Assembly (NCBI GenBank): GCA_031402435.1
Contig: JANNSJ010000058.1
Span: forward strand, 150,213-214,212
Reading direction: 5' to 3'
DNA length: 64,000 nucleotides
Source: Bacteroidota bacterium
Lineage (GTDB): Bacteria > Bacteroidota > Ignavibacteria > UBA10030 > UBA6906
Position 1 is the first letter of the stretch; the number at the start of each line of letters is the position of its first letter. Under the pieces are notes generated by a model. The model ran no database searches and was not told where the DNA came from. It saw nothing but the letters and a program-made list of their open reading frames with translations. Made by a program: the position numbers and the translations under genes. Of this stretch, positions 3,658-37,080 are shown in pieces.

Positions 3658-3686
3658 TTGTCTTCTGGCTGTTTGTTTTGTATATT
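3658..3686 (+). promoter_or_regulatory. Candidate sigma70 promoter for tRNA-Pro
   Basis: TTGTCT-N17-TATATT ending 23 nt upstream of the tRNA. Confidence 0.5.
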
Positions 3687-3709: not shown

Positions 3710-3783
3710 CGGAGCGTAGCGCAGCCCGGTAGCGCACTTGCTTGGGGTGCAAGGGGTCGCGGGTTCAAATCCCGCCGCTCCGA
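3710..3783 (+). tRNA. trnP: tRNA-Pro (anticodon GGG)
   Basis: Cloverleaf: acceptor CGGAGCG/CGCTCCG, anticodon arm CTTGC-TTGGGGT-GCAAG, T-loop GGTTCAAATCC; CCA not encoded. Confidence 0.97.
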
Positions 3784-3789
3784 CAAACG

Positions 3790-9632: not shown

Positions 9633-10070
9633 CTACCCATCTGTATGTGGATGCTGGTCGGGGTGGTCGATAAGCCAGTTTTTGTACCAGCTTAAATCAT
9701 AACACAACGCAAGCAAGTGTTGCAAAGAATCCGGGGTCATGCTCAGGTACGTGAATGAAAATTGCTGTCGTGTTGCTGCCGGGGCGTCTTGGAGTAACGC
9801 GCGCAACAGCGCCGTTGCCCTGTCGATAGCCTCGGTAAACTCGCGGGAAAGCTTCTCAAACCCATCTCCGTCGTTGCCGATGCGCGTCATGATACCCAAT
9901 GTCTTTGAAGCGAACTTTGCAAGAAAGCTGAGCTTCTCCAGGGCTTCATGCTGTTTGTTCGCTGTAGAAAGCTCAATCAGAATACCGAGATCATTCCGGC
10001 GCGTAAGCTTGTATTGCGAGAGAAGGTCGAGGGATGTCAGAAGTTCCACTGTTGATTTACGGAGTTGCAT
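9633..10070 (-). CDS. Hypothetical alpha-helical protein
   Basis: 145 aa from ATG 10070 (MQLRKSTVELL); this start avoids overlap with the divergent kinase. Confidence 0.65.
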   Translation of the reverse strand: MQLRKSTVELLTSLDLLSQYKLTRRNDLGILIELSTANKQHEALEKLSFLAKFASKTLGIMTRIGNDGDGFEKLSREFTEAIDRATALLRALLQDAPAATRQQFSFTYLSMTPDSLQHLLALCYDLSWYKNWLIDHPDQHPHTDG

Positions 10071-10280
10071 GGTGCTATTACGTTGAGGCGAGAAGTGTTT
10101 GAACTGGCCATAAGACTGTGTAACCGCCATAATATAGAAGAAGCCGGATGTACATACAACATCCTGGAACTTTTGAATGGGATCCATGTCTTTACTGTGG
10201 TAGAGTTGCTTCGTTGCTTCTTCTGCAACCAATGGGTAACTTTGGATGAAATGCACAAGGTACAATACATCAATCAGGCT

Positions 10281-11867
10281 ATGGATCTGTTCCAGCGACT
10301 ACCGTTATCGAAAAAGATATTGCTCGGTATTCTGCCGCTGTTCCTTCTCTTCATCTCGGTGAGTGTGGTACTCCAGAATCATTTTCAGGAACAGGAAATG
10401 ATGGAGCAGGCTCAGGCGTCGGCTCACACCTATGCCGATATCATCAAGGAATCTCTCGTCAGCATGATGGTGAATAACCTGGAGGTGGACAACAGTTTTC
10501 TTGAACGCCTGAATGTGTTGCAGCAATTCGACACCGTTCATATTCTCGTCAACGATCTTCACGTGCGCGATGAACTCCTGACCCCAAAACGTATTCAACG
10601 GATCGAAACAAAGCTCAAAACACTCCAACCGCACGACTCTCTGGAGCAAAAGGTATTGGTGTCTGGGCAGCCTTTGTTCATTCGCAACGGTGATCATTTT
10701 CGCGGCGTCATTCCATTTACCGCAACCGAAGTGTGTCAGAAGTGTCACGCCGTTCCTATAGGCTATACACTCGGTGCCACGGATTTGCACATTTCTCTTG
10801 AACGGATTTCCCGGGTGGCGGCGGGAAACTGGAAACGGTCATTTATTATCTTTCTTGTCTTCACCGGACTGGTCATCGCCTTTGCAACATTCATGTTCAC
10901 GCGCTATGTATCGACACCGATTGAGCAATTGGTCGTTGCGACACGAGAGATCAGCAGGGGTAACCTGGAGTATACGATCAGCGCGGGTGAAGCAGATACC
11001 CACGTTTCCTCCTCGCACGATGAGCTGACGTTTCTTGGCCGCATGTTCGACTCAATGAGGGAGTCGCTGAGAGAGAAGATCAACCAGCTTGATCATGCCA
11101 ATGCAAATCTCTCGGAACGAAACAAGGAGGTCGAAGATGCGCTGCTGAAGTTGAAGCAGGCCCAGGAGGAGCTTGTGCGCAGTGAGCGGCTCGCGATTAC
11201 AGGCAAAATGACCGCACAACTCTCCCATGAAATCAACAACCCTATCCACAACATCCAGAGCCTCCTCGAGTCTTCGTTGCGAAAGGTGAATGGAAACCAG
11301 CAAGTGCAAGGCCTGATCGGTGTAGCGTTGGAAGAGGTCTCCCGCATGGCACAGTTGACGCGACAGATGCTGGACTTCTACCGTGGGTCCGTAGTGGATA
11401 TACCCCACGAGCTCGTGGACATGCGCAGCCTGCTATCTGAGGTGACAAGGATGAACGAGGAATCCCTTGCAAAGAAACATATCACCATCGCGCTGAATAT
11501 GCCCTCATCTCTCCCGTTGATTGAAGGGTCCCCGGATAAGTTGAAGCAAGTATTTCTTAACCTGATACTGAATGCTCGAGATGCCATGCCGAACGGAGGG
11601 ACGATTGCCGTCGGAGCCCATGCTGCGCGCGGGAGATTGGCTATTGATGTCCATGATTCCGGCATCGGTATTCCGCCGGAAAACATGGGGAGAATCTTCG
11701 ATGCATTTTTCACAACAAAGAAGGAGGTCAGCGGCGTAGGGCTGGGGTTGTCAGTGACATACGGTATTATTCAGCAACATAAGGGATCCATTGAGGTAAC
11801 GAGTGTGGCGGGAGAGGGAACGACATTCACAATTCAATTGCCAACAGTTGGTGAAACCCATGAGTGA
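10281..11867 (+). CDS. Sensor histidine kinase with periplasmic heme-c (CxxCH) sensor domain (DUF3365/Tll0287-like), HAMP, HisKA, HATPase
   Basis: TM1 after MDLFQRLPLSKK; periplasmic EVCQKCHA; TM2; H-box LSHEINNP; NLILNARDAM; DSGIGI; GVGLGL. Confidence 0.92.
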   Translation: MDLFQRLPLSKKILLGILPLFLLFISVSVVLQNHFQEQEMMEQAQASAHTYADIIKESLVSMMVNNLEVDNSFLERLNVLQQFDTVHILVNDLHVRDELLTPKRIQRIETKLKTLQPHDSLEQKVLVSGQPLFIRNGDHFRGVIPFTATEVCQKCHAVPIGYTLGATDLHISLERISRVAAGNWKRSFIIFLVFTGLVIAFATFMFTRYVSTPIEQLVVATREISRGNLEYTISAGEADTHVSSSHDELTFLGRMFDSMRESLREKINQLDHANANLSERNKEVEDALLKLKQAQEELVRSERLAITGKMTAQLSHEINNPIHNIQSLLESSLRKVNGNQQVQGLIGVALEEVSRMAQLTRQMLDFYRGSVVDIPHELVDMRSLLSEVTRMNEESLAKKHITIALNMPSSLPLIEGSPDKLKQVFLNLILNARDAMPNGGTIAVGAHAARGRLAIDVHDSGIGIPPENMGRIFDAFFTTKKEVSGVGLGLSVTYGIIQQHKGSIEVTSVAGEGTTFTIQLPTVGETHE

Positions 11868-13296
11868 CATGACAAACGCGGCCGTTCGTGCACCCGGTAG
11901 CCGGGAGCGTATCCTTGTTGTCGACGACGACAAGGCATTTCGCGTTGCGACCCAAACCCTTCTGGAGGACGAGGGGTACCGGATTTCTCTCGCTACGAAT
12001 GCCGCCGAGGCGTTGTCCGTTCTTGATCAGGACGAGTTCGATCTTCTGTTAACTGATATGGTCATGGAAAACATGACAGGTATGGAGTTGCTCAGGAACG
12101 TCCGTCGTAAATTCCCCGACCTTCTCGTGATTATGGTAACGGGCTTCGGTTCTATTTCAACTGCCGTGGAGGCCATGTATCATGGCGCTGCCGACTACCT
12201 GACGAAGCCGTGCAACAATAATGAACTATTATTGAAAATCAAAAAGGCACTGGATTCACAACAGAAGGATCGGGAGTTGAAGATGTTGCGGGAAGAAATC
12301 CGCAGCACCTACAGTTTTGGGAATATTGTAACGCGCAGCGACAAGATGAAAGATATCCTTCGGCAAGTCCGCCAGGTTGCCGATACCGATGTTACCGTGT
12401 TGGTCCAGGGTGAAAGCGGCACAGGAAAGGAGCTCGTTGCACACGCGTTGCATTACAACAGCAACCGTGCCGCTGGGCCATTTATCGCGGTGAATTGTTC
12501 CGCCATACCGGAGAACCTGTTGGAGAGTGAGCTCTTCGGATACGAGAAGGGTGCTTTTACCGGAGCGATGAAACAGAAATCCGGCAAGTTTGAGGATGCA
12601 CATACCGGCACACTTTTCTTGGATGAGATCGGCGATATTTCTGCTGCGGTTCAGACAAAGCTGCTGCGGGTTCTTCAGGAAAAAAAATTCGAACGGATCG
12701 GAGGCAATGCTTCGCTCACCGTCGATACACGCGTGGTTGCGGCGACAAATCGTGATCTTGAGATGATGATGCGACAAGGTGACTTTCGCGAAGATCTGTT
12801 CTATCGACTGAACGTGTTTCCGATTGTCCTCCCCCCATTGCGAGAGCGACTCGAAGATATTCCCCTGCTCACCGAACACTTCATGCAACGCCACTCTGAT
12901 CTCGCAGGGGGTCGCGTGAAATTCATTGCACCGGCTGTCATCAGCGATATGATGAACTATACGTGGCGGGGAAACATACGAGAGCTGGAAAACCTTACAA
13001 AACGAGCAATGATAAAAACGATTGGCGACACGGTGAATTCCATGGAGGTGCCAACCAGCGAAGGTCATCCTGCGCAGCCATCAACAGACCCTGCACAAAC
13101 AGTCAATCTGAATACTCCGTACAAGGATTACCTCTCTACCATTACCCGTGATGCCGAAGAGAAATATCTTGTTCGCATGTTACGTCTTTATAAAGGCAAC
13201 ATCAATCATATTGCCAGGATGATGGACGTGGATCGGAAGACCATTTATCGAAAGATGGCCGAGTACTCCATCGACCCATCCACATTTAGAGAGTAA
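11860..13296 (+). CDS. Sigma54-dependent (NtrC-family) response regulator
   Basis: Receiver (VVDDD, LLTDMVM), GESGTGKE, ESELFGYEKGAFTGA, LFLDEIGD, WRGNIREL, C-terminal Fis-type HTH; 8-bp overlap with the kinase. Confidence 0.95.
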   Translation: MSDMTNAAVRAPGSRERILVVDDDKAFRVATQTLLEDEGYRISLATNAAEALSVLDQDEFDLLLTDMVMENMTGMELLRNVRRKFPDLLVIMVTGFGSISTAVEAMYHGAADYLTKPCNNNELLLKIKKALDSQQKDRELKMLREEIRSTYSFGNIVTRSDKMKDILRQVRQVADTDVTVLVQGESGTGKELVAHALHYNSNRAAGPFIAVNCSAIPENLLESELFGYEKGAFTGAMKQKSGKFEDAHTGTLFLDEIGDISAAVQTKLLRVLQEKKFERIGGNASLTVDTRVVAATNRDLEMMMRQGDFREDLFYRLNVFPIVLPPLRERLEDIPLLTEHFMQRHSDLAGGRVKFIAPAVISDMMNYTWRGNIRELENLTKRAMIKTIGDTVNSMEVPTSEGHPAQPSTDPAQTVNLNTPYKDYLSTITRDAEEKYLVRMLRLYKGNINHIARMMDVDRKTIYRKMAEYSIDPSTFRE

Positions 13297-13358
13297 ATCC
13301 TCATTAAACTCACGCGTGGCAACAATGTCCCACACTTGCAGGCTCCCGGCGGTAGCAT

Positions 13359-13376
13359 TGTGGCAGAATAGCCACA
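13359..13376. promoter_or_regulatory. Candidate upstream activator sequence for the sigma54 activator
   Basis: Perfect inverted repeat TGTGGC-N6-GCCACA ending 69 nt upstream of a -24/-12-like element. Confidence 0.45.
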
Positions 13377-13444
13377 CCATTGATCTTCTGTACTATCTTT
13401 TCCCCTAACGGCTCCAATTTTATCAGTTCTTTTGACCAAGTGCC

Positions 13445-13461
13445 TTGGCACGCGTGTTGAC
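13445..13461 (+). promoter_or_regulatory. Candidate sigma54 (-24/-12) promoter of the ECF sigma gene
   Basis: TTGGCACGCGTGTTGAC: perfect -24 block and correct spacing, but GA instead of GC at -12. Confidence 0.4.
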
Positions 13462-13516
13462 ATACCACAGGTACAGCATTTCCACAACACCCGTTCATCG
13501 ACATACACTATTTATT

Positions 13517-14107
13517 ATGGCAGCGCGAACGTTATTCGAACAGGAAGCGCTCCCTCAGCTTGGAGCCCTTAAGAATTTTGCTTTCCAGTTGTGCCGGGAC
13601 GAACAGTATTCTCGTGATCTCGTTCAGGAGACGCTGTTGAAGGCGTATACATATTTCCATACCTATCGAGAGGGCACAAACTGCCGGGCATGGCTCTTCC
13701 AGATCTGCAAGAATTCCTATTTTAATGAGGCGAAGAAGCGAAAATACCAACCGGCGGCAATCGATTTTCAGGAACTGGAGTCGGGTGAGCGTTCCGGAAA
13801 GAGTGAAGACGGCGGACGAAGTCTGCACATTCTTATGAGTGAGCGCCATTCTGGATCCTTGTATACAGGTGTATTGGGTGATGAGGTGGTGACTGCTTTT
13901 GAGACTCTTCCCGCGGATTACCAGACAGTGTTGATCCTATGTGATATGGAGGGCTATACCTACGAAGAGATAGCAGGCTTTATGCAAACTCCTGTTGGAA
14001 CGATTCGGTCGCGCATTCATCGCGGTCGAAAGATGCTGGGATGTCAACTCCGTGACTATGCCGGCACACGTGGATACAAGATACAACAACAATCTCTATC
14101 CAATTGA
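13517..14107 (+). CDS. ECF sigma factor (SigR/SigH-like sequence)
   Basis: FEQEALPQL, DLVQETLLKAY, GTNCRAWLFQI; region 4 YEEIAGFMQTPVGTIRSRIHRGRKML. Confidence 0.9.
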   Translation: MAARTLFEQEALPQLGALKNFAFQLCRDEQYSRDLVQETLLKAYTYFHTYREGTNCRAWLFQICKNSYFNEAKKRKYQPAAIDFQELESGERSGKSEDGGRSLHILMSERHSGSLYTGVLGDEVVTAFETLPADYQTVLILCDMEGYTYEEIAGFMQTPVGTIRSRIHRGRKMLGCQLRDYAGTRGYKIQQQSLSN

Positions 14108-14141
14108 GTGATATGGGAAAGCTACGGCACGAGAAACGCAC

Positions 14142-14312
14142 ATGAAAATTGAAACAAATAGTATCGTCACGTCTCGGGAAATCAAGGGAAAACGGCTTGG
14201 CGGGAAAGATCTGCCATTTTGGAGAAGAGAGAGCCGCGTCAGCTATGTGTTGGCGCTTGCGTTGATATTGCTTGGCTTGGTGCTGGCACTTATTCTGCAG
14301 ACCTTCGCGTAA
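14142..14312 (+). CDS. Candidate 56-aa single-pass membrane microprotein
   Basis: ATG 14142 to TAA 14312 gives MKIETNSIVTSREIKGKRLGGKDLPFWRRESRVSYVLALALILLGLVLALILQTFA: basic N-part and one clean C-terminal TM helix. Below the ORF-track cutoff. Confidence 0.5.
   Translation: MKIETNSIVTSREIKGKRLGGKDLPFWRRESRVSYVLALALILLGLVLALILQTFA
14283..14299 (+). promoter_or_regulatory. Candidate sigma54 (-24/-12) promoter of the cytochrome-porin operon
   Basis: CTGGCACTTATTCTGCA: GG-N10-GC spacing, one mismatch to TGGCAC-N5-TTGCA. Confidence 0.45.
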
Positions 14313-14473
14313 CCATGTTATGTGTGGAACTCTTGGTTCATAATGACAGCCTGAAATAACATAAAGAACATGAGAGCAGATGGGTTGCTTCCAACCGGGA
14401 CCTTCTTTATATTTCCACATAACGTGTTCAATAAGGTCTTATCGTTCTCCAACCCAATAGAAGGAATTGATCG

Positions 14474-15595
14474 ATGAAGTTTCCTCTTCGGATTGCGGTG
14501 ATACTTGTGGTGGGTCTGTTCAGCAGCATCCCCGCGTATGCTCTGCCACGATTCGCCGCTCGTACTGGCGCGAAGTGCCAGTCATGTCATGTCAACCCTT
14601 CCGGCGGGGGTATGCGTCAAACATTCGGCGTACAGTATGGTCGGGAGACGCTGCCCGTTCCAACCTGGTCCGAGGAATTTGGGCTCGATGAGTTCTCTAC
14701 GAAACTGACGGACTTTGTCTCTGTTGGTGCGGATTTCAGGACGTTGTTCTTCTATCAGCAAAACCCTGATACGGGAACTCCACCGAAATCTGTGAAGGGG
14801 GCAAACGCTTTTTGGGAAATGCAAGGCGATGTGTACATGAGTTTTCGATTGGCAAAAAAAGTAAGCATCTATCTTGATAAGGGGATTTACACAGGTTTTG
14901 AAATCTTCGGTCTGCTGAATGTTCTTCCTGCGAATGGTTACATCAAAATCGGGAAATTTGTTCCCAACTATGGAATGAAAACTGATGATCACCGTACCTT
15001 TATTCGTACACATACCGGCTTCAGCGCAGAAACCGGTCGCCCCGAGTTGACCGGAGCGGAGGTTGCCGTTCTACCCGGACCGATTTCCATTACAGGAGGC
15101 GTGTATAATTCTTCGGATGGGTTTGGTGTGGGAACCGGCAACAGCAAAGCCGTACTGGGAAGGGCAGAGGGAATGTTCAAAGCGTCAGAGGACATTTCCA
15201 TCGGGGTTGGAGGAAATGTTTTTACAAAGATGAATACCGCAAGCCAAAGGACAACGCTGTTCGGTGGATTCGGCTCGTTCAGCTATCAGGACTTCACCGT
15301 TCTTGGAGAGGCAGACCTTATTCAGAATAAGCTTGCCGGAACGAAAATCACCGGTCTTGTAACATTTGTCGAACTCAACTATGTTCTGACGCCCGGACTG
15401 GACTTGAAGGTGGGATACAACTTCTACGACCCCAACAAGGATTTGAAAACAGGTTCATTATCGAAGTACAGCATTGGATTGGAGTTCTTCCCGATCTCCG
15501 GTGTTGAGGTGCGGCCCGTCTATAATATTGTAAAGGAAGAGCCGGCAGATGTAAAGAATGATGAATTCCAACTTCTCTTCCATTTTTATCTGTAA
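14474..15595 (+). CDS. Fused monoheme cytochrome c - outer-membrane beta-barrel (Cyc2-like architecture)
   Basis: Signal peptide, then ALPRFAARTGAKCQSCH; the rest is alternating beta-strand sequence ending in an OMP-type terminus (LLFHFYL). Confidence 0.8.
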   Translation: MKFPLRIAVILVVGLFSSIPAYALPRFAARTGAKCQSCHVNPSGGGMRQTFGVQYGRETLPVPTWSEEFGLDEFSTKLTDFVSVGADFRTLFFYQQNPDTGTPPKSVKGANAFWEMQGDVYMSFRLAKKVSIYLDKGIYTGFEIFGLLNVLPANGYIKIGKFVPNYGMKTDDHRTFIRTHTGFSAETGRPELTGAEVAVLPGPISITGGVYNSSDGFGVGTGNSKAVLGRAEGMFKASEDISIGVGGNVFTKMNTASQRTTLFGGFGSFSYQDFTVLGEADLIQNKLAGTKITGLVTFVELNYVLTPGLDLKVGYNFYDPNKDLKTGSLSKYSIGLEFFPISGVEVRPVYNIVKEEPADVKNDEFQLLFHFYL

Positions 15596-15625
15596 TAATT
15601 GCAACGCAATAGGGGAGTCTGTTTT

Positions 15626-16330
15626 ATGTTAAGACGCGTACTTTTGGGTGCAATAGAACTTTCGTGCTTTATCCTTCTTATCAATAGCTGTAAGGACATG
15701 GGGAGTGAACTGCCGACGCCTGCACGTCCTGTTCTTGTATCCACCCAATCATCAGTAAACCTTAGCCCTTCGGGACAGGCGACTCTCACCATTAGCGGAG
15801 GAAACCCTCCGTATACGGTAAGCAGCGATCCTGATCCAGCACTTGCAAGTGTTGCATTGAACAACCTTGTAAACGGTACCGCCACACTGACGATTACTGC
15901 CTCAGCTTCCGTTGTGACACCCGGGACCACGTCGGTAAAAATCAAAGACACCGACGGTGACGCGCCTGCTCACGAGGAACAAGAGATAACAATTATTATT
16001 ATCGTCAATCCGGTTCCCATATCATTCTCGTCTCAAATCCAGCCGATCTTTACGACAAATTGTACGGATGCCGGTTGTCATCCCGGCGGTGGTGCACCAT
16101 TCTCTTTGCAGGCTGGCGCGAGCTATGGGAATCTTGTTGGGGTAGCAGCGACCAACGGACCTTGTGCGGGTGATCTGCGTGTGCAACCATCGAATGCCAG
16201 TGGGAGCGCTTTGATAAAACGCCTCAACGGAACATGCGGGCAACGAATGCCGCTTGGAAGTCCATCCCTGCCGTTGGCCCAGATACAATTAATAAGCGAT
16301 TGGATTAACCAGGGTGCGAACAACAATTGA
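15626..16330 (+). CDS. Lipoprotein with Ig-like domain and C-terminal cytochrome c domain (atypical CX4CH)
   Basis: Lipobox INSC; IQPIFTTNCTDAGCH; distal RMP; ends DWINQGANNN. Confidence 0.8.
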   Translation: MLRRVLLGAIELSCFILLINSCKDMGSELPTPARPVLVSTQSSVNLSPSGQATLTISGGNPPYTVSSDPDPALASVALNNLVNGTATLTITASASVVTPGTTSVKIKDTDGDAPAHEEQEITIIIIVNPVPISFSSQIQPIFTTNCTDAGCHPGGGAPFSLQAGASYGNLVGVAATNGPCAGDLRVQPSNASGSALIKRLNGTCGQRMPLGSPSLPLAQIQLISDWINQGANNN

Positions 16331-16385
16331 GAACCATTGGGGGATTGAGAGTTCAAATGCATTGTGATGATTGGAGGGAAGAGAT

Positions 16386-16754
16386 ATGAGTCGATATTAT
16401 GCATCCGTTGTGATTGGTCTTGTGTGTCTCAGCGTGTTGATAGGCTCATGTAAGGATGAGGGGCAGCCGAATTCCCCTTCGACACCGGCGGGGTCTTTGT
16501 TGACAGCAACTCCAGCCGGTGTAACGGTAGGAGCGGGTGGATCACAAAATGTAACAATCACCGGGGGGACACATCCGTATACGGCGCAGCCGCAAAATCC
16601 GGGTCTTGCTTCGGCTCAGGTTATTACAAATGCTGACACTGCCGTCATAATGATAACGGGTGTTTCCACTGCGACCGGGTCAACATCAGTGATTGTAAAA
16701 GATGCTTCAACACCCCAGAAATCTGCAACGGTCGGAGTGAACAAGACCCCGTAG
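16386..16754 (+). CDS. Small lipoprotein, paralog of the N-terminal Ig-like domain of the preceding protein
   Basis: Lipobox IGSC; shares SCKDxG, TPA, TI(S/T)GGxxPYT, PxLAS and TSVxxKD with 15626..16330. Confidence 0.75.
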   Translation: MSRYYASVVIGLVCLSVLIGSCKDEGQPNSPSTPAGSLLTATPAGVTVGAGGSQNVTITGGTHPYTAQPQNPGLASAQVITNADTAVIMITGVSTATGSTSVIVKDASTPQKSATVGVNKTP

Positions 16755-16819
16755 TTGTAGTCGATGGCAGTTGTTTGTAGAGAAATCAGTATTCATCAAA
16801 AAGAAACCAGGAGGAAAAC

Positions 16820-17251
16820 GTGAGGTTCCATGCAGCCGCAATTCTTGCCATATCGTTGTCAATAGTTGTGAGTTCTTCGTTCGGTCAAGAAGGTCAGGTG
16901 AAAAAGTCGTCAAAGAACAAGACAAGCTCACCATCATTCAAGAAAGATATCTTTCCTATTATCAAAAAGAACTGTATGCCCTGCCATGCCGAGGAGAATT
17001 TCAATCCGAGCGAACTTTCCATGGATGACTATGACAAGCTACAGGCTGGCGGGAAGAACGGCACGGCGTGGGTTGTGGGGAAACCCGACGAGAGTCTTAT
17101 TGTAAAAAAGCTTGGCAATGAGCCACCGTTTGGTGATAGGATGCCACTCAACTCCAAGCGGAAGATCACAGAGGGTAAAGCCAAATGGCTTACGGACGAC
17201 GAGGTCAAAACAATTGTGACGTGGATTGATGGGGGAGCAAAAAATAACTAG
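16820..17251 (+). CDS. Periplasmic monoheme cytochrome c (planctomycete cytochrome C / PSCyt1-like)
   Basis: GGAGG RBS and GTG start; signal peptide; DIFPIIKKNCMPCH; GDRMP; ends TWIDGGAKNN. Confidence 0.85.
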   Translation: MRFHAAAILAISLSIVVSSSFGQEGQVKKSSKNKTSSPSFKKDIFPIIKKNCMPCHAEENFNPSELSMDDYDKLQAGGKNGTAWVVGKPDESLIVKKLGNEPPFGDRMPLNSKRKITEGKAKWLTDDEVKTIVTWIDGGAKNN

Positions 17252-17279
17252 CGTTCTGTTGAAAGCGATGCACAAGACT

Positions 17280-17311
17280 TCCCCGGGTGGACGGCCCGGG
17301 GATTTTTGTTT
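17280..17311 (+). terminator. Rho-independent terminator closing the cytochrome operon
   Basis: CCCCGGGT-GGACG-GCCCGGGG followed by ATTTTTGTTT. Confidence 0.75.
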
Positions 17312-17366: not shown

Positions 17367-19757
17367 ATGTTTAGAGAACATCAAAGCCTGAGCGTCAAGA
17401 GCGTCTTTGACAGCATCAAGCTGACGTCGGATTCCCTGCTGCGCCTGCTTATTGCGGCTTCACTCGTCGTGCTTCTTGCGGTGATGTTCCCGCGCGGTGA
17501 GGAGATTGATGTTGATTATAAAGTCGGGGCTGTATGGTCGCAGAAGGACGTCATCGCACCAATTTCCTTTGCTCTCTTGCGTGAAGCGCGAGAATACGAG
17601 AAGGATGTAGAGCACGCAAAGCAATCGGTGTATCCTGTGTTCGAGCGGGACGCAGCAAGCGAAAAACATCAACATGAAAGGTTGAACGGGTTCTTTGAAC
17701 ATTTGGATAGTACGCTTGACGCCAGAGGGACGCTGAAGCAAAGCCAGAAGGAGCGACGCCCGTCGTTGCCCCGCGATTCGACAACCTTTGGTCGCATATC
17801 GCAGCGTATGGAAATTCCCCTTGCAGACGGTGAATGGGAAACTCTTGCAGCACTGAGAATGTCGGGTGGCATTGAACAACTAAAGCACTCACTCGTCGTT
17901 GCGTTACAGGAATTTCATACCGTCGGTGTGCTCGACCGTCTCAAGAGCAGCCTTGTACGTCCCATCATTGCTCTGCGCAAAGGCTCGCAGGAAGAGATCA
18001 TCCCGGTGGCACGCCTGTATGATCCTGGTGATGTGCAGGAGCTTCTTGATAAGTTTCTTGTACTGTCTTTCAAGGCAGATATCAAAATCCGTTCCCTGGC
18101 ATACAAGATCGGCATTACGCTCTTCGAACCAAATATCAGGTTCAGCGAAGCCGCGACACGACAGGCAATGGAAGCGGCGATCAGCACCGTTTCCCGGACG
18201 AATGGGTTTGTACAGGAAAACGAACGCATTGTCAGCAAGCACGAGCGGATAACCCCGGAGATCAAGTTGAAACTTGAATCGCTTGAACGCTCGCGTGCCG
18301 AGCGCGGGTCAAAGAGGGACTATTCACTCCAGCGATTCGGAATCGTGCTTCACGTTGTGATTGTCGTAATGCTGTACGGCATTTATTTGTATCTTTTCCG
18401 AAAGCGGATTTTTTGGAACAACCGCCACCTCGCGCTCATTGCGTTGTTGATGGTGATGGAGGGTTTCTTCGCATACGTCACCAGGGAAATGGATGTCAAC
18501 GCTCCGATTGAGTTCCTGATCTTTGTCCCGGCGGCTTCAATGCTCTTGACGATCATTTTCGACTCACGGGTGGGGTTCTATGGTACGGTCATCATCTCGT
18601 TGCTGGTTGCAGGAATTCGCGGGAATGATTATGCCATAGCGCTGACATCCATCATTGCGGGCGCCTTGGCGGTTTATACCGTGCGAGACATGCGCAACCG
18701 GTCACAGATCTTCCGCTCTCTCGGATTCATCTTTCTTGGATATGTGCTTTCGATTGTCGCCCTTGGTGTTGAACGATTTGCATCCGCAAGCACGCTTGTG
18801 GAGCAGCTTGTCTATGGGCTTGCCAACGCCATCGTGTCACCTGTGTTGACCTATGGACTCCTGATCTTCTTCGAGCGCGTCTTCAGGGTGACTACCGACC
18901 TGACGTTGATGGAACTTTCGCACTTCAATCATCCACTCCTGAAAAAACTCTCCGAACAGGCGCCCGGCACGTATCATCACAGCCTGACGATAGCGACGCT
19001 TGCCGAATCCGCCGCCTCTGCTGTTGGAGCAAACGAAGTTCTTGCGCGGGTAGGGGCACTGTTTCATGATATTGGCAAACTAGTGAAGCCGATGTATTTT
19101 TCGGAGAATCAAAAAGGATCGCGCAACAGGCACGATAAACTCACTCCGCGGATGAGTTCACTGATCATCTCCGCGCATGTGAAGGAAGGTGTGGCCCTCG
19201 GCGAGGAACATAGCTTGCCACGGGAAGTGATCGACTTTATCCCGATGCACCACGGGACAACACGGATCGAGTACTTTTATAACAAGGCCATGAATCTCGC
19301 CAGTCAGTCCGATGATGAGACAAAGATCGAGGAGATCAATGAACAGGACTACCGGTATCCCGGCCCGAAGCCGCAAACTCGCGAAACGGGAATTCTGATG
19401 CTTGCCGATGCCGTGGAAGCGTCCACGCGGACACTGGATGATCCCTCACCACAAAAATTGGAAGGCGTCATCGGAGAAATTATCAAGAAGAGGTTTGAGG
19501 AGGGCGAGTTGGACGAGTGTCCGCTTACGCTCAAAGACCTGACGAAGATACGTGCTGCGTTCCTCAATGTGTTGGTAGGAATACATCATACTCGCGTCAA
19601 GTATCCTGAGTTGCCAAAGAAGAGAACCCCCAGACCCAAGCGAGCTACACAGCTCTCCGGGCTGGCGTCACAAGATGTGTCGGCAAGTTCACCAATAACA
19701 CCGGCCTCACCGGACGCTTCGGGCCAAACAGAGAATGGAACGCAGAAGACAGAATGA
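17367..19757 (+). CDS. 7TM-HD (HDIG) membrane phosphohydrolase, PgpH-like
   Basis: N-terminal TM, large extracellular domain, 7 TM block, then HHSL...LFHDIGK...MHHG...MLADAVEA. Confidence 0.9.
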   Translation: MFREHQSLSVKSVFDSIKLTSDSLLRLLIAASLVVLLAVMFPRGEEIDVDYKVGAVWSQKDVIAPISFALLREAREYEKDVEHAKQSVYPVFERDAASEKHQHERLNGFFEHLDSTLDARGTLKQSQKERRPSLPRDSTTFGRISQRMEIPLADGEWETLAALRMSGGIEQLKHSLVVALQEFHTVGVLDRLKSSLVRPIIALRKGSQEEIIPVARLYDPGDVQELLDKFLVLSFKADIKIRSLAYKIGITLFEPNIRFSEAATRQAMEAAISTVSRTNGFVQENERIVSKHERITPEIKLKLESLERSRAERGSKRDYSLQRFGIVLHVVIVVMLYGIYLYLFRKRIFWNNRHLALIALLMVMEGFFAYVTREMDVNAPIEFLIFVPAASMLLTIIFDSRVGFYGTVIISLLVAGIRGNDYAIALTSIIAGALAVYTVRDMRNRSQIFRSLGFIFLGYVLSIVALGVERFASASTLVEQLVYGLANAIVSPVLTYGLLIFFERVFRVTTDLTLMELSHFNHPLLKKLSEQAPGTYHHSLTIATLAESAASAVGANEVLARVGALFHDIGKLVKPMYFSENQKGSRNRHDKLTPRMSSLIISAHVKEGVALGEEHSLPREVIDFIPMHHGTTRIEYFYNKAMNLASQSDDETKIEEINEQDYRYPGPKPQTRETGILMLADAVEASTRTLDDPSPQKLEGVIGEIIKKRFEEGELDECPLTLKDLTKIRAAFLNVLVGIHHTRVKYPELPKKRTPRPKRATQLSGLASQDVSASSPITPASPDASGQTENGTQKTE

Positions 19758-20656
19758 ACGATCACGTAAGAGATTATATTCATTACTTGCAGTTGGAAAA
19801 GAACGCTTCGAAGAACACCGTCGCATCATACAGCCTTGATATTAAGAGATACGTGGAGTTTCTTCGGGCCCATCGTGTGAAGGCTCTCGAAGCAGTGACG
19901 GAAGTGCATATGTCTCGCTTCATGACTGCATTGCACCATGAAGGACTATCCCCCCGATCTGTGACGCGGACACTTTCTGCAGTCAAAGGTTTTCACAAGT
20001 TTCTGGTTGGAGATGGTCTCGTTCACGCGAACCCGGCCGATAACATTGACCGCCCAAAACTTCCGCGCTCGCTCCCTGACGTATTAAGTCAACCCGAAGT
20101 GGATGCGATCTTAAATCAACCGGTTGCACTGCCGAACGACAAGCGCAACCTGTGGCTGCGCGACAAGGCGATTCTCGAGACACTCTACGCTACCGGCATG
20201 AGGGTGTCCGAAGTAATTGGCCTGAAGCAGGCAAATGTCCTGCCGGAGGAGGGAATCGTTCGCGTCTTTGGCAAGGGATCGAAGGAACGGATTGTGCCCA
20301 TTGGCGGTTCTGCACTACGATGGATTGCCCGTTATCAAAAGGAAGTACGAGGTCTTCTTGTTAAGAAAGGGAAATCGCAGGACGCCTTGTTCCTGAACGT
20401 CCGTGGAACGGCAATGACGCGTATGTCCGTCTGGAACATCGTCCAGGAATACACCACGAGCGCCGGGATTACGAAGGATGTGCATCCGCATACGTTCCGC
20501 CATTCATTTGCGACACACCTGCTCGAAGGTGGTGCGGATCTCCGCGCTGTGCAGGAGATGCTCGGGCACTCGGATATTTCAACGACACAGATTTATACTC
20601 ACATTGATCGTGAGTACCTGAAGGAAGTCCACAAGACATTTCATCCGAGAGGATGA
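19754..20656 (+). CDS. xerD: Site-specific tyrosine recombinase XerD
   Basis: RDKAILETLYATGMRVSE, GKGSKER, HPHTFRHSFATHLLEGGADLRAVQEMLGHSDISTTQIYTH. Confidence 0.93.
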   Translation: MNDHVRDYIHYLQLEKNASKNTVASYSLDIKRYVEFLRAHRVKALEAVTEVHMSRFMTALHHEGLSPRSVTRTLSAVKGFHKFLVGDGLVHANPADNIDRPKLPRSLPDVLSQPEVDAILNQPVALPNDKRNLWLRDKAILETLYATGMRVSEVIGLKQANVLPEEGIVRVFGKGSKERIVPIGGSALRWIARYQKEVRGLLVKKGKSQDALFLNVRGTAMTRMSVWNIVQEYTTSAGITKDVHPHTFRHSFATHLLEGGADLRAVQEMLGHSDISTTQIYTHIDREYLKEVHKTFHPRG

Positions 20657-37050: not shown

Positions 37051-37080
37051 AATATACCATTTCCAATTCAGTTTCAGCAA
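37051..37080 (-). promoter_or_regulatory. Candidate outward-facing promoter at the island edge reading into tig
   Basis: Minus strand TTGCTG-N18-TATATT with extended -10 (TGnTATATT). Confidence 0.45.

Follow-up and report, generated by a model that had tools for sequence, protein, structure and literature searches.

A putative heme-c kinase, sigma54 activator and ECF sigma factor at the head of a Cyc2-like cytochrome-porin cluster in uncultured Ignavibacteriota

A 64,000-nucleotide (nt) stretch of DNA from a Bacteroidota bacterium of the UBA6906 lineage, here called the window (assembly GCA_031402435.1, contig JANNSJ010000058.1, positions 150,213-214,212 of the forward strand), carries genes for a sensor histidine kinase, an NtrC-family activator and an extracytoplasmic function (ECF) sigma factor, referred to below as the module, upstream of a gene for a Cyc2-like cytochrome-porin (cyc2). 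The best explanation of the whole, to which we assign a probability of roughly 60%, is that a heme-bearing kinase acts through the activator on a sigma54-dependent unit at the head of the cyc2 cluster, with a read-through boost of cyc2 and a feedback of the ECF sigma factor on its regulators. Sequence comparison shows the domain architectures, the way in which the genes are linked, the housekeeping promoter before cyc2, and the conserved sigma54 promoter together with its enhancer sites. The original prediction had described a kinase with a periplasmic CQKCH, an overlapping activator with GAFTGA and an ECF sigma factor, all upstream of a cytochrome-porin operon, and gene calls and domains agree with it; the four gene calls (kinase, activator, ECF sigma factor and cyc2) hold, all on the + strand. 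Its proposal that they form a three-tier cascade is well supported for the first two tiers, by architecture and by the conserved sigma54 promoter, and is not supported for the third, as no ECF-type promoter was found at cyc2. For comparison, 74 loci (denoted by L numbers) were gathered via the Cyc2-like protein, and more contigs were added via exact-protein look-ups. Every relative is a metagenome-assembled genome of uncultured Ignavibacteriota/Bacteroidota, and the sequence-bearing DNA runs originate in freshwater sediment. The elements that carry the argument are the following, with positions in the window and lengths of proteins in amino acids (aa).

10166-10196, + strand: candidate ECF-type promoter GGAACTTTT-N15-CTTTACT (GGAAC -35), ~85 nt 5' of the kinase start
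10214-10244, + strand: proximal housekeeping promoter of the kinase-activator operon, Bacteroidota-like TTG...TAnnTTTG, TTGCTTCT...TAACTTTG
10281-11867, + strand: sensor histidine kinase, 528 aa (Pfam, alignment, AlphaFold model, fold matches)
11860-13296, + strand: NtrC-family response regulator/sigma54 enhancer-binding protein (Pfam, NCBIfam)
13316-13334, + strand: distal enhancer (upstream activator sequence) palindrome GTGGCAACAATGTCCCACA, imperfect
13359-13376, + strand: proximal enhancer (upstream activator sequence) palindrome TGTGGCAGAATAGCCACA (TGTGGCagaataGCCACA), perfect
13446-13461, + strand: sigma54-type -24/-12 promoter TGGCACgcgtgTTGAC, 56 nt 5' of the ECF start codon
13517-14107, + strand: ECF (group 4) sigma factor, 196 aa (Pfam Sigma70_r2 and r4_2)
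14385-14413, + strand: housekeeping-type promoter TTGCTT-N17-TATATT of the cyc2-like operon, 60 nt before the ATG
14474-15595, + strand: Cyc2-like fused monoheme cytochrome-porin, 373 aa (homologues, alignment, structure model)

Regarding the step from the activator to the ECF gene, the start of the activator gene overlaps the stop of the kinase gene by 8 nt (ATGAGTGA), and its product has the domain set of the NtrC family: a receiver domain (REC, PF00072), a Sigma54_activat domain (PF00158, E 2.7e-74) with GAFTGA encoded at nt 12550-12567, an AAA lid (PF25601) and a Fis-type helix-turn-helix (HTH_8, PF02954). That an activator with GAFTGA needs a sigma54 promoter, as had been pointed out, is borne out by a conserved -24/-12 element and palindromes before the ECF gene. 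Of the 20 ECF-encoding loci, 19 have the predicted sigma54 element, TGGCAY-N5-TTGV, 30-60 nt before the start of their ECF orthologue (in L134 it reads TGGC), and most loci also have a pair of TGTGGC-N6-GCCACA palindromes, which precede the -24 element by ~132 and ~88 nt. A scan of 2.03 Mb for TGGCAY-N5-TTGV on both strands returned 33 matches against ~12 expected from composition. A palindrome lies 30-260 nt upstream of 21 of these 33, and all palindrome-bearing matches that were inspected are located directly after an activator gene or directly before an ECF or cargo gene. This arrangement of promoter and palindromes is the classical enhancer-dependent layout and therefore gives strong comparative support to the activator-sigma54-ECF step. 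As the conserved promoter and enhancer palindromes stand exactly before the ECF gene, the sigma54-to-ECF step is well founded, and it is very likely, as far as the sequence comparison goes, that the activator drives the ECF gene via sigma54. A second sigma54-like site at 14284-14299 (TGGCACttattCTGCA), 174 nt 5' of cyc2, was rejected as a promoter; it falls inside a 56-aa open reading frame (ORF), in LALILQ codons, and is unconserved in L075 or any other locus.

The ECF sigma factor has regions 2 and 4 only (PF04542 and PF08281) and 341 orthologues at E<=1e-20. Its best NCBIfam match is TIGR02947 (SigH-like), below the cut-off, and the HrpL model gave no match in the NCBIfam search. No anti-sigma gene was found next to the ECF gene in 20 loci, where the following gene codes for Cyc2, a CHRD protein, an ATP-grasp enzyme or a cytochrome c. 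In this respect the ECF sigma factor is non-canonical and of the kind that is controlled through its transcription. A second, more distant ECF paralogue (35% identity) is encoded in L031 (3646-4170), 3 kb 5' of the cyc2-linked ECF gene.

What the ECF sigma factor acts on is a separate matter. The original prediction had it relay the signal to the cytochrome-porin operon, such that RNA polymerase bearing the ECF sigma factor starts directly at the cyc2-like operon and cyc2 is ECF-dependent. The gene order speaks for such a strict relay, with the ECF gene directly upstream of cyc2 and co-directional in at least 17 loci, and ECF orthologues nearly always beside cyc2 (<=1.5 kb downstream in 3 of the 4 ECF-ascertained loci); moreover, a GGAAC pentamer occurs 55-62 nt 5' of the -35 element of cyc2 in the window, L013, L031 and L043. 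The promoters point the other way. A TTGnnn-N17-TATATT element, with a spacer of always 17 nt, stands 25-90 nt before the cyc2-like gene in ~45 loci. It is still kept, as GATATT, where protein identity has dropped to 31%, and the presence or absence of a nearby ECF or kinase gene makes no difference to its occurrence. It is the housekeeping type of this organism, because the same type precedes the tRNA-Pro gene (3710-3784), as TTGTCT-N17-TATATT at 3658-3686, and several unrelated genes of the window. A position-weight-matrix scan built from the sites of the ECF-type footprint, which is described below, found no ECF-type promoter between the ECF gene and cyc2 in any locus. The GGAAC pentamers in front of cyc2 were rejected as an ECF promoter, since they are equally frequent in ECF-less loci and have no consistent -10 partner. 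Direct initiation at cyc2 by the ECF sigma factor is thus unlikely, and the ECF-to-cyc2 step is probably replaced by read-through together with a constitutive promoter. From its promoter, the cyc2 operon looks constitutively expressed, with a possible inducible boost.

Further sites of the TTGnnn-N17-TATATT type occur in the window at 37051-37080 and 10131-10159, both on the - strand, and suggest a housekeeping consensus, from which the kinase operon differs with TTG...TAnnTTTG.

The sole ECF-type footprint stands before the kinase gene, between the promoter of a divergent gene and the proximal housekeeping promoter of the kinase operon, and this position suggests positive feedback of the ECF sigma factor on its own regulators. 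The footprint is identical in L075, L076 and L109, near-identical in L078 and L079, and weaker but recognisable in L082, L083, L113, L124, L026, L028 and L029. It was not found in the four kinase loci that have no ECF gene (L009, L017, L041 and L025). The proximal housekeeping promoter, as TTGATTCT...GGTAACTTTG, is kept in all 20 kinase-upstream regions. That the ECF sigma factor feeds back on the kinase operon would follow from this distribution, and we put it at slightly less than an even chance. Two additional GGAACTTTT sites, in L034 and L035, lie within a threonine-synthase-like gene on the opposite strand and were set aside as chance matches.

The link between module and cyc2 was approached from each of the genes. 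A synteny survey of the block, put forward with the original prediction as a check, gave a divided answer. Seen from cyc2, part of the module is present in 17 of the 28 species-level loci whose upstream flank measures 2.5 kb or more, in several gene arrangements, and the remaining 11 carry cyc2 without any module part within 2.5-8 kb. Seen from the kinase, long orthologous contigs carry module and cyc2, and this approach has little power because only one long orthologous contig (L077) was found in the metagenomes. The ECF gene is missing, with sigma54 promoter and palindromes intact, in five loci (L009, L017, L024, L025 and L041). In L017, L024, L025 and L041, the genes headed by the promoter then encode a 230-aa lipoprotein, a CHRD-repeat protein that carries a type IX secretion tail and a cytochrome c lipoprotein, and cyc2 comes after them. 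Owing to these ECF-less loci, the conserved core appears to be the kinase-activator pair plus the sigma54 promoter heading the cyc2 cluster, the ECF gene being a frequent but dispensable first gene. The order also varies elsewhere: cyc2 follows the activator gene by ~45 nt in L021, the stop of the ECF ORF abuts the cyc2 start in L133, and L135 has the order ECF, CHRD, cytochrome c, cyc2 with a different left neighbour. On one contig (L077/L127), ECF and cytochrome c genes are followed by a 15-kb insertion and then by cyc2.

As to the route of the signal, no terminator-like hairpin was found between the ECF gene and cyc2 in 12 of 12 loci, and the + strand of the window from 13296 to 17280 holds no terminator-like site except a weak one within the ECF gene. 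Read-through from the sigma54 promoter is the simplest route to cyc2, since no terminator intervenes and a canonical one stands at the end of the operon. Two metatranscriptomes each contain one short contig from a close relative, spanning 13963-14211 and 16489-16733. One contig, of a near-identical strain, begins within the ECF gene and extends 104 nt beyond its stop, which is weak evidence compatible with read-through.

Some side features accompany these spacers. Long inverted repeats without a T-tract (e.g., GTGTCTCAGTTT...AAACTGAGACAC) lie between the ECF gene and cyc2 in L011 (7790-7900) and L028 (7840-7930) and could be attenuators or repeat elements. The inserted island of L077 (5582-11365) and L127 (1-10000) consists of glycosyltransferase, ABC-transporter and ATP-grasp genes; a similar glycosyltransferase cluster is found upstream of the ECF gene in L136, and a single ATP-grasp gene stands between ECF and cyc2 in L131. 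The stretch from the sigma54 promoter to the cytochrome genes repeatedly encodes CHRD-repeat proteins, some of which carry type IX secretion tails (L017:5271-7187, L024:5043-6542, L135:6552-7352).

Several observations weigh against the proposed reading. At the promoter, L133 is the exception among the 20 ECF-encoding loci, having an off-spacing element, and the window itself has TGGCAC-N5-TTGAC, that is, a -12 element with GA rather than GC (TTGA vs TTGC); the canonical TTGC is present in several of the other conserved loci. A search for the RpoN box within the window and the fetched loci, and thus within those stretches of the genomes, did not find it. The ECF-type footprint is deviant or degenerate in L077 and L135, and its assignment to this ECF sigma factor comes from co-occurrence in few independent lineages. 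Seven loci have the ECF gene with its sigma54 promoter and no nearby kinase-activator pair, and the ECF orthologue of L134 has no adjacent cyc2. The RNA evidence amounts to two short contigs, which are insufficient for start sites or operon structure. Two observations bear on the tie to cyc2 in particular: ~35 more distant cyc2-like loci were searched for the module, and it is present in none; and in L012 (503-735) a divergent hypothetical gene is directly followed by cyc2, the spacer retaining a GGAACTTTT motif and a TTGATTCTC remnant of the kinase promoter. The latter locus looks as if the kinase, activator and ECF genes had been cleanly deleted from it, with the kinase-upstream footprints now fused to the cyc2 promoter.

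The same facts could mean that module and cyc2 are neighbours by descent only, the module controlling other genes (an ECF regulon elsewhere, or the secreted CHRD or propeller proteins) and cyc2 being constitutive. Consistent with this, cyc2 has a strong housekeeping promoter of its own everywhere, the 11 relatives mentioned above do without the module, insertions of up to 15 kb part the module from cyc2 in L007, L131 and L077/L127, and the predicted sigma54 promoter of L009 heads a gene for a secreted Ycf48/BNR-like propeller protein. However, the linkage outlasts rearrangements, as seen in kinase-activator-cyc2 of L021, ECF-cyc2 of L133 and the new left neighbour in L135; no terminator lies between the sigma54 promoter and cyc2, and intervening cargo genes encode cytochromes of the same cluster. 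Functional coupling is favoured because the persistence of linkage across rearrangements is its usual sign. Mere neighbourhood by descent is therefore considered improbable, and a functional tie of the module to the cyc2 cluster likely.

Heme-c Cache sensors are familiar from chemoreceptors of Geobacter. In the kinase studied here, a membrane helix (~12-32), a periplasmic stretch of ~155 aa and a second helix (~186-206) are followed by HAMP, HisKA and HATPase_c domains (Pfam). CQKCH occupies residues 152-156 (nt 10734-10748) and faces the periplasm, because it is flanked by the two hydrophobic helices. C152, Q153, C155 and H156 (CQxCH) are invariant among 14 orthologous kinases of 52-80% identity. 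The same holds for a VPxGYxLGAxD stretch and for two methionines of the long N-terminal helix, Met62 and Met63. Covalent heme c in the sensor domain is predicted from the CXXCH motif. The Pfam model PF11845 (Tll0287-like/DUF3365) scored 12.6 bits (E 0.18) against the sensor domain, under its gathering cut-off of 24.1, and a profile of the kinase orthologues gave a weak match in the PDB (E 0.55) to 3B42, the heme-c sensor GSU0935 of Geobacter, with PF..CQxCH aligned. An AlphaFold model of the sensor domain (predicted local distance difference test score, pLDDT, 75) has strands at 132-136, 139-147 and 163-172 and a helical turn at 152-154, so that CXXCH forms a short helical turn preceding the last beta-strand. 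Its Foldseek matches are the WalK sCache domain (2.2e-4), GSU0935 (4.7e-4), GSU0582 (1.3e-3) and Tll0287 (4.7e-2). In a 2026 preprint, GSU0582, GSU0935 and Tll0287 were united as the sCache_heme family, whose CXXCH lies within a short inserted helix ahead of the last strand (PMC12889525). The sensor modelled here resembles these proteins (GSU0582, 3B47; GSU0935, 3B42; Tll0287, 5B82) in its periplasmic Cache/PAS-like fold, its single CXXCH before the last strand and its fused signalling output. It differs from them in being sub-threshold in Pfam and in belonging to a HAMP histidine kinase whose partner is a sigma54 activator, with Met62/Met63 as candidate axial ligands. The label "DUF3365-type" given by the original prediction is hence right in kind, since fold, motif position and orthologue conservation agree despite the sub-threshold Pfam score. 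By fold and motif position of the model, the sensor would belong, as a distant member at best, to the DUF3365/Tll0287 (sCache_heme) kind of periplasmic, Cache/PAS-like domains that bear heme c.

This relationship bears on the identity of the signal. Instead of the periplasmic redox state or Fe(II) electron flux, the heme sensor could report a diatomic gas, above all nitric oxide (NO). According to the preprint, sCache_heme members fused to signalling modules have NO-sensor-like spectra, whereas stand-alone members show redox-like behaviour (PMC12889525), and the kinase is a fused member by its fold. On the other hand, its domain is distant from the family (12.6 bits against the Pfam cut-off of 24.1), the invariant Met62/Met63 would suit a six-coordinate His-Met heme, which fits redox sensing, and the genomic partner is an electron-transfer cluster. 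Gas sensing is accordingly regarded as a rather doubtful alternative to redox sensing.

Cyc2-type cytochrome-porins are a marker for neutrophilic iron oxidation. The Cyc2-like protein of the window, for which 420 homologues were found, begins with a signal peptide (MKFPLRIAVILVVGLFSSIPAYA), followed by the heme motif AKCQSCH (CQSCHVNPSGGGMR). In an alignment of 36 sequences, C35, C38 and H39 are invariant, as is CxxCH-x-NP-x-G. The structure model (predicted template modelling score, pTM, 0.75) contains a barrel of ~16 strands at residues 82-372, and its top Foldseek match is OprP (2O4V, E 2.9e-11). OprP (2O4V) is also the reported template for Cyc2, for which a 16-strand porin and a length of at least 365 aa are required (PMC8406198). 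With its signal peptide, single N-terminal CXXCH and porin fold, the 373-aa protein meets the structural definition of Cyc2, as judged from the model. It thus shares with Cyc2 of Acidithiobacillus ferrooxidans and Cyc2PV-1 of Mariprofundus the signal peptide, the single N-terminal CXXCH, the 16-strand porin and OprP as best match. It differs in being short and in having its own conserved CQSCHVNPxGxGMR motif, and its likeness to them is one of structure.

The remaining features of the locus are listed below.

9633-10070, - strand: conserved hypothetical protein, ~145 aa, divergent from the kinase; habitual left neighbour of the module (tblastn matches to residues 65-205 of the long ORF in >15 loci)
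10131-10159, - strand: housekeeping-type promoter TTGTAT-N17-TATATT of the divergent gene (window pattern scan; the reverse complement AATATAG is kept in the intergenic alignment)
14142-14312, + strand: 56-aa ORF with one membrane helix (short homologue in L075 only)
15599-16330, + strand: lipoprotein with C-terminal CxxCH (syntenic in most loci)
16371-16754, + strand: second lipoprotein (syntenic in most loci)
16820-17251, + strand: PSCyt1 monoheme cytochrome c (syntenic in most loci)
17280-17302, + strand: strong intrinsic terminator at the end of the cytochrome unit

Neither Pfam nor NCBIfam gave a family match for the divergent gene product, the Cyc2-like protein or either lipoprotein. The right-hand neighbourhood is very stable; a 7TM-HD (PgpH-like) phosphohydrolase and a XerD-like recombinase (window 17367-20656) follow the cytochrome operon in nearly all loci. 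The 56-aa ORF, whose stop at 14312 is where the region marked out by the original prediction ended, was considered as an anti-sigma factor and rejected. It occurs only in the window and L075, there is no room for it elsewhere, it has no Pfam match and it is too short for an anti-sigma domain; it is probably a lineage-specific small membrane protein. The two one-helix ORFs, of 56 aa in the window and 34 aa in L075 (5631-5735), share SYxLAxxLxLLGxxxALxLQ.

Taken together, the mechanism that we favour would run as follows. A kinase whose Cache-like domain bears a c-type heme in the periplasm would phosphorylate the NtrC-family activator, which may then bind the two TGTGGC-N6-GCCACA palindromes just beyond its own gene. 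The bound activator would open the sigma54 promoter, whose first gene in this lineage encodes an ECF sigma factor without an anti-sigma factor; therefore its activity would be governed at the level of transcription, as with HrpL. Because the sigma54 unit appears to head the Cyc2-like cluster, which also owns a presumably constitutive housekeeping promoter, the kinase signal most likely lifts cyc2 above its basal level through read-through. The ECF sigma factor would most likely feed back on the kinase-activator operon via the GGAAC-type promoter, and it probably has further targets elsewhere in the genome. Of these steps, we infer the phosphotransfer, the read-through and the feedback loop, and likewise what the kinase senses (periplasmic redox or a gas such as NO).

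A relay from sigma54 to an ECF sigma factor is unusual, as had been stated, but not new, for HrpL sets a precedent. In the cascades HrpR/HrpS-sigma54-HrpL (ECF32) of Pseudomonas syringae and HrpX/HrpY-HrpS-HrpL of Erwinia/Pectobacterium, the ECF sigma factor has no anti-sigma factor and is set by transcription (PMC8999054, PMC5263251). The likeness lies in an enhancer-binding protein and a sigma54 promoter before an ECF gene without anti-sigma, which in the present case is known by comparative sequence only. There are differences in three respects. The activator described here is a response regulator (REC, AAA+, HTH) of a heme-sensor kinase, whereas the HrpR/S type has no receiver domain; the autoregulation of HrpL is negative, whereas the feedback predicted here, via the ECF-type promoter before the kinase, would be positive; and the present system belongs to Ignavibacteriota/Bacteroidota and adjoins an electron-transfer cluster as its output, not a type III secretion system. 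The present system would accordingly work like the HrpL cascade and is not a member of it, being set apart by the REC domain and the absent match to the HrpL model. In CseB/CseC-SigE (ECF39) of Streptomyces coelicolor, a two-component system directly controls the transcription of an ECF gene lacking an anti-sigma factor (PMC8999054). The present system shares such two-component control of an ECF without anti-sigma and differs in the activator, CseB being of the OmpR type and acting on a sigma70-type promoter with no sigma54 step.

An NtrC-type regulator and sigma54 also switch on a second alternative sigma factor in the Hk2-Rrp2-RpoN-RpoS cascade of Borrelia burgdorferi. There the second sigma factor is RpoS (group 2), not an ECF, and to our knowledge no heme sensor is involved. 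The novelty of the present system lies in the way it combines a heme-c Cache kinase with an enhancer-binding protein that contains REC, with sigma54 and with an ECF sigma factor. Its phylum, its place at a Cyc2-like cluster and the positive feedback predicted for it are new as well.

The three-sigma relay onto cyc2 is not borne out by the promoters. The comparison adds another phylum and another physiology to the rare wiring of sigma54 to an ECF sigma factor, of which HrpL of plant pathogens is the best-known case, with a heme-c Cache sensor feeding a sigma54 activator. We know of no regulator described for canonical Cyc2. The expression of cyc2 may respond to Fe(II) (PMC8406198). Against this background, the module is a concrete, testable candidate regulator, with a purifiable sensor domain, two enhancer sites, a sigma54 promoter and an ECF sigma factor with a mappable regulon. 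For the biology of this uncultured Ignavibacteriota clade, we tentatively suggest, as a speculation, that the heme-c Cache kinase reads periplasmic redox state or a gas, and that sigma54 and the ECF sigma factor with positive feedback might act as a commitment switch that boosts the Cyc2-like electron-transfer cluster above its basal level. If this is true, Cyc2-type conduits would have their first described dedicated regulator, and sigma54-ECF relays their first example outside Proteobacteria.

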